Origin: Longimicrobiales bacterium
Lineage (GTDB): Bacteria; Gemmatimonadota; Gemmatimonadetes; Longimicrobiales; Gaopeijiaceae
Reading direction: 5' to 3'
NCBI GenBank assembly: GCA_965198065.1
Contig: CBDAON010000004.1
Coordinates: forward strand, 320,001 to 384,000
DNA length: 64,000 bases
Below the pieces are notes generated by a model. It was not told where the DNA came from and did no database searches. It saw only the letters and a list, made by a program, of their open reading frames with translations. This document shows positions 4,886 to 62,293 of this stretch, one piece after another. The translations under genes were made by a program, and so were the position numbers. How positions within the stretch are numbered: position 1 is the first letter of the stretch; the number at the start of each line of letters is the position of its first letter.

Positions 4886-5347
4886 TCACTCGACGTCGCG
4901 CTCGCGCCCCATGGCAAGGGCGACGTCCTCCGTGAGGGGGCGGCGGCCGGAGAATCCCGCGTTCACCTCGTGCCAGGCCAGGATCTGGTCCTCGCCCATG
5001 CGCCAGCACAGGTAGACGGTACGACCGGCGTAACGAGCCGGGAAGTCGACCAGGCCATGCTCGATGCCCCCCGCGGGAAGGCGGACACCTAGGGAGAGGA
5101 GGCCGGTCTCGACCAGCCGCTCGAGGCGGTGCACGCTCCGCTCGAGTTCCGCCCTGGACCGGAGGAACTCTTCCCGATCGGGGTTCCCGGCCGCGCGGAT
5201 CTTCTCCCCCCAGAGCCCCTCCAGAAGCTGGACACGATCTGCGGTTCGCTCGATCTCCTGCCGGACCTGCCGGATCTCCTCCATGACCGACGTGAGGCGG
5301 GGGAGCAGAGCCCCTGCCTCGGGCACCGTGAAGAACCGCTGGATCAC
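4886..5347 (-). CDS. DUF2203 family protein
   Basis: RFFTVPEAGALLP...GLVDFP...VYLCWRMGEDQILAWHEVNAGFSGRRP; GTG start overlaps the proC stop. Confidence 0.85.
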   Translation of the reverse strand: MIQRFFTVPEAGALLPRLTSVMEEIRQVRQEIERTADRVQLLEGLWGEKIRAAGNPDREEFLRSRAELERSVHRLERLVETGLLSLGVRLPAGGIEHGLVDFPARYAGRTVYLCWRMGEDQILAWHEVNAGFSGRRPLTEDVALAMGRERDVE

Positions 5348-10330: not shown

Positions 10331-10403
10331 TGGGGTGTAGCTCAACTGGCAGAGCGCCTGGCTGTTAACCAGGAGGTTGTAGGTTCGAGCCCTACCGCCC
10401 CAG
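10331..10403 (+). tRNA. tRNA-Asn(GTT); CCA not encoded
   Basis: Acceptor TGGGGTG/CGCCCCA, D arm GCTC...GAGC, anticodon arm CCTGG-CT-GTT-AA-CCAGG, T arm GTAGGTTCGAGCCCTAC. Confidence 0.97.
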
Positions 10404-58599: not shown

Positions 58600-59031
58600 A
58601 TGGCTGTCCGGAAGAAGACCAAGAGCAAAGCAGAATTCGGGGACTTCTAAACCCCCCCGGCACTAACCGAGCAAGTGTGTGCCTTACTCGTCGATCACGG
58701 TCTTCATCCTTCTAGCGTCCTTGAGCCTACTTGTGGCACAGGGAGCTTCCTGGCTGCGGCGGTCCGGGCGTTTCCGGCTGCGCGCCAAATCGTGGGCATG
58801 GAGATCAACCCGCAGTACGTGGCTCAAGCAGAGAGCTTGTTGAACGGAGCGCGTTCGGATGCGCACGTCCACATTCAGCAGGCTGATTTCTTTCAGACCG
58901 ATTGGGAAGAGCTAATCCGTGACCTGCCGAAGCCACTTCTAGTTCTGGGTAATCCCCCCTGGGTGACGAGTGCGGAGCTCGGCAACCTAGGTAGCTCGAA
59001 TCTACCCGAGAAGTCCAACTTTCAGGCGTGA
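58600..59031 (+). pseudogene. DNA amino-methyltransferase pseudogene (nonsense mutation and truncation)
   Basis: MAVRKK...EFGDF*TP (expected FQTP), LEPTCGTGSF motif I, GNPPW motif IV; ends abruptly at 59031. Confidence 0.88.
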
Positions 59032-59171: not shown

Positions 59172-60413
59172 CTAACGTAGCGAAGAAGACCGACCATCCG
59201 CAGGCTTCCCACTGAGGTAGGCTTCCCAGTCACCCATGAGCCGGCGTCGGCGTTCGAACAGGTCCGTGCGCCGATAGGCCGCCTCAACCCTGTTCTGGAC
59301 GACATGCGCGAGAGCCGCCTCGATGACCTCGCGGGGATGATCCGTTTCCTCGGCCGCCCAATCGCGGAAGCTGGAGCGAAACCCGTGGGGCACGGCCGCG
59401 ATCTTGTGCTTCCCGAGCATCCGGCGCAGTTGCTTCTCCTCGAGCTGCTTGCCGAGCCGATTGGGAAACAGATACGGACTGGTTCCCTCCACGAGCGTCC
59501 GTGCCCCGTCCAGAATCTCCAGTGCACGACCACACAGCGGGACCCGGTGCTCGCGGTTCGCCTTCGTCCGCCTGGCCGGTACGGTCCACACGCCATTCTC
59601 CCGATCAATCTCGGTCCACTCGGCCCACCGCACCTCGCCCCACCGCGCTGCTGTCAGCACCAGGAACTCGAATGCCAGCCGGACGGCCGGAGGTACCGTC
59701 GATGCCCGCGCCGTCCGGATGGCCGCGGCCACCTCGCGATGTGGCAAGGCCCGCATGTGCTGCACGACCTTATGCTGTGGACCCAGGACCGGGCCAATCC
59801 GGTCGCACGGGTTGTCGATCCGAAACTCCATCGCCACCGCCCATTCCAACACCGCATGGAGGCGTTGGCGCAGCTTCCGGGCGGTGGCCGCCTTCGTGTG
59901 CCAGATGGGAGCGATGATCTCCAGCACGTCGGCGCTCGTGACCTCCGACACCGGCAGCTTCCCGACCCGCGGGAAGGCATACCGCTCGAAGGTCAACATC
60001 CAGTCGCGGCCCTGCGCCCGACTTCGCCACCCGGCCCGCTTCTGCTCGACCACACGTCGAGCGGCTTCGGCGAACGTGGGTATGCCAACGGAGCGCCGCT
60101 TCTCGGCCAGCGGGTCGCCGCCCGTGCGGGCCAGCTTGCGGTTGGCCAGCGCCTGCTCGCGGGCCTCGGCCAGCGAGACTAGGGTGACGCTGCCGAGTCC
60201 GAGCTCGCGCTTGCGGCCCCGGATCACGAGCCGCTGAATCCAGCTCCGCGTTCCCGTCGGCTGCACGTAGAGGTACAATCCGTTGCCGTCCGCGTGTCTT
60301 CCAGGCGGGGCGGTGCGCACGAAAGCGGCCGACAGGGCCTTGTCGGGATGACGGCCCTTGGGCTTCGTTTTCCGGGGCGAGCGGGCCTTGTTCGTTACAG
60401 AATCCATCCCCAT
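59172..60413 (-). CDS. P4-like tyrosine integrase (copy 1)
   Basis: DGNGLYLYV arm domain, LGLGS..VSLAEARE, TAAR, HRVPL, HGFR, LAH, AAY. Confidence 0.95.
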   Translation of the reverse strand: MGMDSVTNKARSPRKTKPKGRHPDKALSAAFVRTAPPGRHADGNGLYLYVQPTGTRSWIQRLVIRGRKRELGLGSVTLVSLAEAREQALANRKLARTGGDPLAEKRRSVGIPTFAEAARRVVEQKRAGWRSRAQGRDWMLTFERYAFPRVGKLPVSEVTSADVLEIIAPIWHTKAATARKLRQRLHAVLEWAVAMEFRIDNPCDRIGPVLGPQHKVVQHMRALPHREVAAAIRTARASTVPPAVRLAFEFLVLTAARWGEVRWAEWTEIDRENGVWTVPARRTKANREHRVPLCGRALEILDGARTLVEGTSPYLFPNRLGKQLEEKQLRRMLGKHKIAAVPHGFRSSFRDWAAEETDHPREVIEAALAHVVQNRVEAAYRRTDLFERRRRLMGDWEAYLSGKPADGRSSSLR

Positions 60414-60531
60414 ATAATATAGGGGATGGAAGTGGATATCAATGGATGCCGGAGTCGGAAGAATCCGCTAGGATGTGTCCATAACTTGTTGTTATAGCAG
60501 TTACTTATGGACTGTACTGGATGATACTGCA
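60403..60531. promoter_or_regulatory. att-like/autoregulatory module 5' of integrase 1
   Basis: tccatccccat-ataata-taggggatgga (60403-60430); IHF-like taacttgttgtta at 60482; tgga/tgga/tgca at 60508/60518/60528. Confidence 0.7.
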
Positions 60532-61733
60532 CATCGGTCTAGATAGCATGCCCATTCCTCCATGAGCCGACGGCGGCGCTCGAACAGGTCGGAGCGCATG
60601 TAGGCGGCCTCGACCGGGTTCCGGACTACATGGGCCAGGGCCGCCTCGACGACTTCGCGGGGGTGGTCCGTCTCTTCGGCGGCCCAGTCTCTGAACGACG
60701 ACCTGAACCCATGCGGCACCGCCGCGATCCCGTGCTTCCTGAGCAGCCGGCCCATCTGCTCGCCGCCCACCTCTCTGCCGCGCTTGCCGACGAACACGAT
60801 CGGACTCCCGCCGCCGCCCAGCTTCCGCGCCGCGTCGAGAATCTCCAGCGCGCGGCCGCACAGCGGCACACGGTGCGCGCGCAGGCTCTTCATCCGGCTC
60901 GCGGGGACCGTCCAGACGCGCTCCTCCCGGTCGATCTCGCTCCATACCGCCCCGCGGACCTCGACGCCCCGCGCCGCCGTGAGCACCATGAACTCGAACG
61001 CCAGCGCGTCCACCTTGCCCGCCTTCGCCGCCCGGACCTTCTCGATGGCCGCCCCCACCTCGCGGTGAGGCAGGGCCTTCCGGTGTCTGACGACATGTTG
61101 CTGGGAGCCGAGCACCGGCAGGAGCCGGTCGCACGGGTTGTCCGTTCTCCAGTCCATGGCGATGGCCCATTCCAGCACGGCGCGGATGCGGTGGCGAACG
61201 ATCCGGGCCGTCGGCGGGTTCGCGTGCCAGATGGGTGTGAGGATCTCGAGCACGTCGGCGCTCGTCATCTCGGAGACCGGCACCCTCCCGATCCTTGGGA
61301 AGACGTGAATCTCGAAGCTGCGATACCAGTTCCTCGGCACCGCCGCGTTGCGCCATCCGGCGCTCTTCTGCTCGATGACGCGCTTAGCGGCCTCGGCGAA
61401 GGTGGGAATGCCCGCCGAACGCCGCTTCTCGGCCAGCGGATCGCCGCCCGCGCGGGCAAGCTTGCGGTTGGCCAGCGCCTGCTCCCGCGCCTCGGCGAGC
61501 AAGACCAGTTGGGCGTTGCCGAGTCCGAGCTCGCGCTTGCGGCCCCGGATCACGAGCCGCTGAATCCAACTCCGGGTTCCGGTCTTCTGGACGTAAAGGT
61601 AGAGACCGTTGCCATCGCAGTGCCTGCCGGGCGGTGCCGAGCGCACGAAGGCGGTCGAGAGCCGCTTGTGGGGATGGCGGCCCTTGGGCTTGCCTAGGCG
61701 GCGCTTGACGGGAGATCGAATCACATTATCCAT
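60501..61733 (-). CDS. P4-like tyrosine integrase (copy 2)
   Basis: Same motifs as copy 1 (DGNGLYLYV, TAAR, HRVPL, HGFR, LAH, AAY); start placed at the ATG within the palindrome. Confidence 0.95.
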   Translation of the reverse strand: MDNVIRSPVKRRLGKPKGRHPHKRLSTAFVRSAPPGRHCDGNGLYLYVQKTGTRSWIQRLVIRGRKRELGLGNAQLVLLAEAREQALANRKLARAGGDPLAEKRRSAGIPTFAEAAKRVIEQKSAGWRNAAVPRNWYRSFEIHVFPRIGRVPVSEMTSADVLEILTPIWHANPPTARIVRHRIRAVLEWAIAMDWRTDNPCDRLLPVLGSQQHVVRHRKALPHREVGAAIEKVRAAKAGKVDALAFEFMVLTAARGVEVRGAVWSEIDREERVWTVPASRMKSLRAHRVPLCGRALEILDAARKLGGGGSPIVFVGKRGREVGGEQMGRLLRKHGIAAVPHGFRSSFRDWAAEETDHPREVVEAALAHVVRNPVEAAYMRSDLFERRRRLMEEWACYLDRCAVSSSTVHK

Positions 61734-61857
61734 CCCACAATCATAACTGGGATGGAACGGGATCGCAAAGGGCACTGCTGGCAGAACGAGACAAGAAAGA
61801 AACTACGTAACCTGTTGTAAATACTGGATGTTATGCACCTACCCGGAAATCCTTGGA
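61729..61857. promoter_or_regulatory. att-like/autoregulatory module 5' of integrase 2
   Basis: tccatcccaca-atcata-actgggatgga (61729-61756); IHF-like taacctgttgtaa at 61808; tgca/cgga/tgga at 61834/61844/61854. Confidence 0.7.
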
Positions 61858-62293
61858 CGGTATCGGATTCAAGTTGTGCGTTTACGGCAAGTAATCGTCT
61901 AAGTTCAACCGGGACTGCACGATCTGCCGCACTTGCCGTTGGCCGATGGCTGATTGCAGCGTACCGAAACAGCGAGAAAACGGCATCGAATGGCGGGAAT
62001 CCGGGTCGCATCGGGTCCCGTGTCAGCAGTTCGTCGTGAGTTCCTCACGCTGGCCAAGGTCACGTGGATGGTCCCCCGTATGACGGCCCACACCTACGCG
62101 GGACTCCTCAGCGATCACAAGTGGACGATAGGTCAGTGGTGATACGGGAAGGAAGACTGCTGCATCGACCGATGGGCCGGGAACGGGCGCGGCGCCCACA
62201 CGATCGTTCACGAGGTCTTCCGCCTGTTCAGATTTCGGCGCCCGGACACACCGCCCGACAGAGGCGGCGTCCTGACAAGCTCAGAGCTTCTAT

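Follow-up and report, generated by a model that had tools for sequence, protein, structure and literature searches.

Head-to-tail P4-type integrase genes in a Longimicrobiales genome: a probable insertion of one island into the integrase gene of another

In a 64,000-nucleotide stretch of the genome of a Longimicrobiales bacterium (GenBank assembly GCA_965198065.1, contig CBDAON010000004.1), which we call the window (G000:C4:320001-384000, where G000 is the source genome), two genes for P4-type tyrosine integrases, int1 and int2, follow each other head-to-tail. We think that this locus, at 58.4-62.6 kb of the window, probably arose by nested insertion. An island carrying int1 would have entered int2 at the codons of its last helix and supplied a look-alike tail, and both islands would since have lost their cargo and their right ends. 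The earlier note on this DNA had suggested something else, namely a self-contained mobile unit of about 1.3 kb that stacks in tandem.

Both genes are on the minus strand. int1 (59172..60407) encodes 411 amino acids from a predicted leaderless ATG, or 413 if an alternative in-frame ATG at 60413 is used. int2 (60501..61733) encodes 410 amino acids and its native last codons are replaced. The two products are about 70% identical, contain the Arm-DNA-bind_3, Phage_int_M and Phage_integrase domains, and have all six R-K-H-R-H-Y catalytic motifs at identical positions. Their nearest solved structures are the arm and core domains of CP4-like integrases (3jtz, 3ju0, 2khv); a match to NCBIfam PRK09692 stays below its cut-off. 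The only tRNA gene of the window is at 10331, 49 kb from the pair. The note's description of two intact, diverged integrases without an adjacent tRNA gene is therefore accurate.

The signs of insertion are found at the 3' end of int2. Uninterrupted copies of this gene (G000 C4:15k, L106, L110 and L114, with 97-99% DNA identity; L and G numbers are our labels for loci and genomes) end in LM(D/N)DW(A/E)AYLA, with a short tail behind it. Up to 60559, where host sequence ends, the window copy agrees with them; it leaves them at the codon after LM and then continues in frame in the left end of the int1 island. This junction is 151 bp before the int1 ATG. Read in the int2 frame, beginning with base three of the first E codon, the left end (60501..60558, minus strand) specifies EEWACYLDRCAVSSSTVHK-stop. 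The replacement, EEWACYLDR..., resembles the native tail and would keep int2 working.

Such a structure could be explained as follows. The int1 island would recombine site-specifically into the conserved last-helix codons of int2 (M-D/E-D/E-W-x-x-Y-L), in a lambda/P4-type reaction that would use a short overlap some 150 bp ahead of the ATG; the candidate overlap in the int1 attL is CATGGAG (60558..60564, minus strand). The int2 island had itself been inserted in an attachment (att) arm of a third element family. Loss of cargo and right ends by both islands would have followed. A guest island of this kind might hitchhike with its host island.

The same junction is seen with other hosts. A pattern search across 401 genomes gave 28 int1-type left ends, in 14 genomes, and four of them lie in integrase tails (the window, L119, L130 and L126). 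L119 is a second intact head-to-tail pair; the switch of its host integrase, which shares 66% identity with int2, is at the same base, and the uninterrupted allele of this host, present in G000, ends LMDDWARYLALWR. The host integrase in L130 is degraded, and again the switch is at the same base. The host in L126 is 36% identical. There is also a right end that borders a displaced integrase tail. At G000 C4:1354k this tail, QEWADYLDRL of a P4-type integrase, comes after an AT-rich end that resembles an arm; together with an int1-type left end at a distance of 10 kb, it makes up a direct repeat of 30 bp. In a tree of 112 integrase rows (SH-like approximate likelihood ratio support only, with 28 rows unassigned and related rows not independent) clades follow the type of left junction, and the int1 clade (support 100) has an EWADYL-type left end in 16 of its 18 rows. 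A separate idea, that members of the int1 clade changed their own tails to avoid self-insertion, was dropped: CATGGGT is found in 7 of 19 and CATGGAC is kept in 8 of 19.

Complete relatives indicate what has probably been lost from the window. Nine of 17 candidate pairs of left and right ends rejoin across cores of 11-22 bp, in register, into a continuous open frame (L038, L049, L050, L060, L061, L065, L093, L094 and G000 C4:1334k). These elements are 4.3-9.0 kb long; in L093, for example, the matching cores are 5.6 kb apart. L059 (3.8 kb, scored 8.5) is a weaker tenth. The pairs outside the count of nine are L018, L026, L033, L069 and L080 (7-9 bp repeats only), L059 because of its score, L078 (no recognisable frame) and G1364 (mixed flanks). 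When the separate halves of the targets were compared with Pfam, both halves of a TonB receptor placed the cut in its Plug domain at profile position 63, IstB proved to be cut at 220 of 238 and HNH at 38 of 47, and pyrroloquinoline quinone (PQQ) dehydrogenase was recognised on both sides. Complete relatives carry cargo and a second arm; a conserved right arm with two direct repeats is present in G000 and at other loci, and one genome has four copies more than 99.7% identical over more than 5 kb. The cores of the rejoined pairs end 138-144 bp ahead of the integrase match, and the two junctions in the window are 151 and 150 bp before the ATG. The block shared by int1 and int2 upstream is the left end and promoter of ordinary integrase islands of about 3-10 kb. 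A separate case is L034, possibly a deletion derivative: it lacks the left module, and immediately after its integrase, at about 5209, comes a stretch that resembles a right arm.

This block is organised as the earlier note had seen it. A palindrome, TCCATCCC-N12-GGGATGGA, covers the -10 box and the start codon in both copies (60403..60430 for int1, 61729..61756 for int2). Exactly 52 bp past each palindrome there is a motif resembling a site for integration host factor (IHF), at 60482..60494 and from 61808 (both minus strand), with one and two mismatches, respectively, to the consensus WATCAANNNNTTR. YGSA repeats in 10-bp phase follow at 60508/18/28 and 61834/44/54; those of int1 (TCCA-like, 60508..60531, minus strand) are likely sites for a directionality factor, by analogy of layout with the KplE1 attL, and in int2 the IHF-like site and phased repeats together span 61808..61857 on the same strand. 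The two modules align without gaps at an offset of 1326, with 73 of 143 bases identical. Among 91 homologue upstream regions the phased TCCA repeats, the AT-rich IHF-like stretch (within one mismatch of the consensus in 36), the -35 box and the -10 box inside the palindrome are kept, which upholds the view of the module as an att arm with IHF-like and phased sites. Beyond the module boundary similarity ends sharply, and each subfamily is abutted by a different sequence.

What the palindrome does is a different matter. Each module has a sigma70-type promoter on the minus strand, TTGATA-17-TATTAT for int1 (60414..60442) and TTGCGA-17-TATGAT for int2 (61740..61768); a scan of the window found three such sites where 0.4 were expected, and both module copies score. 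In both copies the ATG comes 7 nt after the -10 box, and leaderless transcripts are therefore predicted. The note had read the palindrome as 11-6-11 and proposed a dif-like recombination site as one of two roles. Nine of the 11 pairs hold in each copy; a perfect 11-6-11 does not, and the spacer contains the -10 hexamer. Since the crossover junctions are about 125 bp beyond the palindrome and a conserved -10 box is in its spacer, the recombination site must be given up. Perfect 8-12-8 inverted repeats are not rare (there are seven in the window), hence it is the conserved position that counts beyond chance. A weight matrix built from the right-arm repeats alone was applied to the 64 anchorable modules. 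In 58 of them the half-palindrome that covers the ATG is one of its two best sites, and in 23 the same is true of the other half; for the window both int1 halves come on top, along with only one int2 half. For this reason the palindrome is likely to be an inverted pair of arm-type integrase sites that acts as an operator rather than as a crossover site, and autorepression, the second role in the note, appears the likelier of the two. By analogy, integrase might repress its own promoter through the palindrome, with IHF and an AlpA-type factor bound to the arm. Nine matches to AlpA are present in G000, of which some come shortly before right arms and none is within the window.

The int2 clade has a target of a different kind. 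The left arm of the int2 island (61734..61883, minus strand) meets the target at about 61883/61884, and beyond this point there is an att arm of another multicopy element family, which we call R (61884..62027, minus strand). All seven int2-clade copies seen (three in G000, three in G032 and one in G035) come after TTGCCGT in an R arm. R has 13 matches in G000, and displaced tRNA halves come after two of them. It is probably part of another integrase family, which apparently inserts in P4-type integrase genes near codons 264-276 and 375-388 (G000 C4:452342, 136031, 511787, 2685154 and 2074404; C3:55358), and therefore this family and the int2 clade seem to target each other. There is one more peculiarity of this part of the genome. 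R and int2 are present a second time, 11 kb away, as an inverted copy of 1469 bp with 100% identity (window 60559-62027 = G000:C4:393118-394586). The copy breaks off within one base of the int1 insertion site and is followed by what we take to be an Ig-like-repeat sequence. This suggests a rearrangement at the int1 insertion site, gene conversion or an assembly issue.

Downstream of int1 one would look for cargo and attR. Instead, within 150 bp, int1 runs into a fragment of a broken DNA-methyltransferase gene (58600..59031, plus strand). The fragment has a stop at about 58648, at which contigs of three runs have C for T. No attR for either island of the window was found in G000 and the related loci searched. 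The overlap does not match fully either: CATGGAG in the int1 attL stands against the native CATGGAC of int2, a mismatch at the seventh and last base. Taken together, the missing right end, the methyltransferase joint and the mismatch mean that the locus is a decayed remnant. No empty site for the whole locus was found; L105 has the right flank and part of the R arm, then another element.

The mismatch is one of several points that weigh against nested insertion. Only four of the 28 int1-type left ends are in integrase tails, while 21 share a single IS3 junction and three are elsewhere. For none of the four did a search (in the whole of G000, in L095, L096 and L145-L146, and in five genomes by pattern) turn up a right end followed by the displaced tail of the host, and the int1-type right arm was not found in nine other genomes by pattern. 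The sole right end with a displaced integrase tail, at C4:1354k, pairs with an IS3-type left end. At G000 C4:1748k a right arm is followed by a displaced IS3 half, and IS3 is therefore a true target of some member of the family. As for the module, the IHF-like count stands without a shuffle control, and the upstream half-palindrome of int2 is not in the top five sites of the matrix.

If these points are given full weight, the EWADYL-like left end would be a relic of an old insertion, the pairs would have formed when deletion or microhomology recombination joined this relic to integrase ends, and the working target would be IS3 or short look-alike sites. That no complete island inside an integrase gene was found in the genomes searched fits such an explanation, as does the state of G000, which is heavily rearranged and has dozens of IS3 copies. 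Nevertheless, we consider it unlikely. Three family hosts switch at the same base even though the ends of relic and host match only in part, the switch base is in register with the cores of other members, and a right end with a displaced integrase tail does exist. Nor do the 21 IS3 junctions, in which an IS3 left end with orfA is fused to the int1 module (L117-L144; G000 C4:451021, C4:1364500 and C3:60835), have to count as 21 events. Sixteen of them start at the IS3 left tip and have different flanks; many may therefore descend from one event spread by IS3, possibly as an IS3-integrase composite that moves by transposition.

The insertion-sequence-like unit of the earlier note, taken here as 1326 bp long, stacked in tandem and recombining in the palindrome or at its 3' end, is largely refuted and we regard it as very improbable. 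The period of 1326 bp is exact, the 3-Mb genome has 17 matches to int1 of at least 248 residues (and 34 to PF00589), the identical inverted copy among them, and in many pairs of relatives the likeness ends close to the stop codon of the integrase gene. But module and integrase are not the whole of a mobile unit in a family whose complete members are 3.8-9 kb long, with cargo and a separate right arm, and which includes the four near-identical copies of more than 5 kb. Neither is the palindrome constant enough, being imperfect in most homologues: of 91 copies, 17 retain all eight outer pairs and 41 at least seven. Tandem stacking of like units does not describe the pair, since the two differ in left end and target, and one is better read as an island in the integrase gene of the other. 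Among the joints listed for eight public run sets, inspected as assembled contigs, none was that of a 1326-bp circle. A joint at the module in run X9 that "goes back", among the joints listed, was considered and rejected as a circle; it comes from an int2-like gene placed on both paralogous sites.

Equally hard to credit is transposition of the Tn916 type with relaxed specificity, in which many sites would be used, a few bases of the prior site would be carried along and integrase tails would merely be abundant. It would account for the variation of the six bases before the junction (CATGGA, GATGCA, GACCCA and others) and for the three left ends at unrelated sites, but not for one target type per clade, for complete elements with near-identical cores at both ends, or for tail-like sequence of more than 20 bp in frame. 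An assembly artefact of repeated integrase genes, which the high repetition of the family and the identical inverted copy nearby might bring to mind, is the least probable of all, given that other genomes have this junction too, with different hosts, that contigs of runs X2, X5 and X6 span the joint between the methyltransferase fragment and int1, and that short contigs of X6 and of X8 run across the tail junction, albeit with fewer than 31 letters on one side.

We return to nested insertion and to the family in which it probably took place. The family is common in sponge-type Gemmatimonadota and Acidobacteriota, and a search of runs points to sponge metagenomes (RNA runs shared at most 12% of words). 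The best 80 homologue loci in GTDB, which are those we examined, come from Longimicrobiales, Palauibacter, Versatilivorator, Vicinamibacterales and similar assemblies; among 31 sampled genomes of relatives the family is present in only five, G000 included. These sources suggest that the bacterium of the window is itself associated with sponges. Plasmid homologues are all less than 60% identical. In JGI metagenomes a pattern scan for the int1 left end gave 0 matches, and a protein scan gave seven loci, none of the int1 clade. tRNA genes are present in only three of the 80 loci, and in the two that were inspected none is at the left junction. Hence the homologues are not tied to tRNA-integrated islands, a condition under which the earlier note would have seen the pair as a mere remnant of such an island. 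The targets of relatives are motifs in protein-coding genes and not the 3' ends of tRNA genes.

A broader suggestion can be made, more tentatively, since we would not quite count on it. A clade of P4-type integrases may use the last helix of other integrase genes as its attachment site and bring a working replacement tail, and the wider family may have left tRNA genes and retarget quickly among motifs of multicopy and mobile genes. The proposed range includes the start and the end of integrase genes, IS3, the IS21 helper, HNH, TonB receptors, PQQ enzymes and att arms of other elements. Quick retargeting of this kind would explain genomes with more than 100 integrase matches.

Several other observations were made along the way. 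In G031 there are 144 integrase matches, many of them with an end at residue 351 or a start at residue 101, a hint of further targets inside the gene. A subfamily in the same genome (L100-L102) is inserted head-to-head in the N-terminal CDGNG codons of another integrase gene. In a distant subfamily, about 50% identical (L073, L074 and L077, at about 5200-5330), the insertion point is a few codons farther along the helix that int1 has entered: the element follows the YLA codons of an integrase in head-to-tail order and supplies it with a short new tail. After integrases at G000 C4:888k, 919k, 1335k and 1348k and in L014, L017, L021 and L025, a conserved stretch is followed by a frame that is presumably MobC-like, and many members may be mobilizable; by eye, oriT-like and MobC-like sequences come after several family integrases, none of them in the window. 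As to tRNA genes, G000 has 17 on one strand within 2.2 kb (C4:1711057-1713237), and its tRNA-Leu(TAA) gene at C4:395757-395836 has displaced 3' copies at C4:19072, 2803906, 2807204 and 2813278.

The layout of the module is already known. In KplE1 the intS promoter is overlapped by attL, where arm sites and sites for the directionality factor are found, and intS is autorepressed (PMC2951348). The present family shares with P4 and KplE1 (IntS) islands the three domains, an int gene pointing inward from attL and a promoter that overlaps the arm and its sites (PMC2951348); int lies next to attL in the window, and core repeats of attL and attR surround cargo in relatives. The P4 cluster is reported to insert downstream of tRNA genes (PMC8138268), whereas this family splits protein-coding motifs and att arms of other elements and has a predicted leaderless promoter. 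Targeting of other mobile elements also appears in known systems. Helper-embedded phage-inducible chromosomal islands (HE-PICIs) include a clade of tyrosine integrases whose targets are, again and again, genes of other mobile elements, and attB type is shared within clades (PMC10111431). Their targets, however, are prophage late genes, and they come without a replacement sequence; here the target is an integrase gene with a replacement tail. IME_oriT and other integrative and mobilizable elements in genes of integrative and conjugative elements likewise land in another mobile element and may ride along with it, but at oriT or a resident att site rather than at the coding end of an integrase gene (PMC5704250). 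In tandem accretion the newcomer would be placed at the island border, not inside int. Islands at gene 3' ends (tRNA, guaA, thdF) restore the frame of their target with the incoming end (PMC10111431, PMC5704250), in contrast to the case described here, in which a multicopy gene that is itself mobile is targeted and regains a tail that is similar, not identical. SSV-type archaeal integrases, with attP within their own gene (PMC7253208), also recombine in an integrase reading frame. There the element breaks its own gene; here the gene of another element is entered and the own gene is kept whole. The accessible parts of PMC13626063 and PMC12884075 do not mention integrase genes as targets, and in the literature that we looked at there was no description of integrase-tail targeting or of this island family, a statement that leaves aside the wide integrase-target map of the TIGER study, which may list integrase genes. 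Within that literature it is the integrase-tail target that appears to be new, elements that target other mobile elements being known already.

If nested insertion is right, it provides a mechanism for adjacent integrase genes, which are usually read as deletion scars, and it means that islands use the recombinase gene of other islands parasitically, with no obvious damage to it. Many closely related integrases of this family (65-95% identical) have different mapped targets and form a natural series on how the site specificity of tyrosine integrases changes. If the broader suggestion is also true, any resident P4-type island would be both a landing pad and a vehicle.

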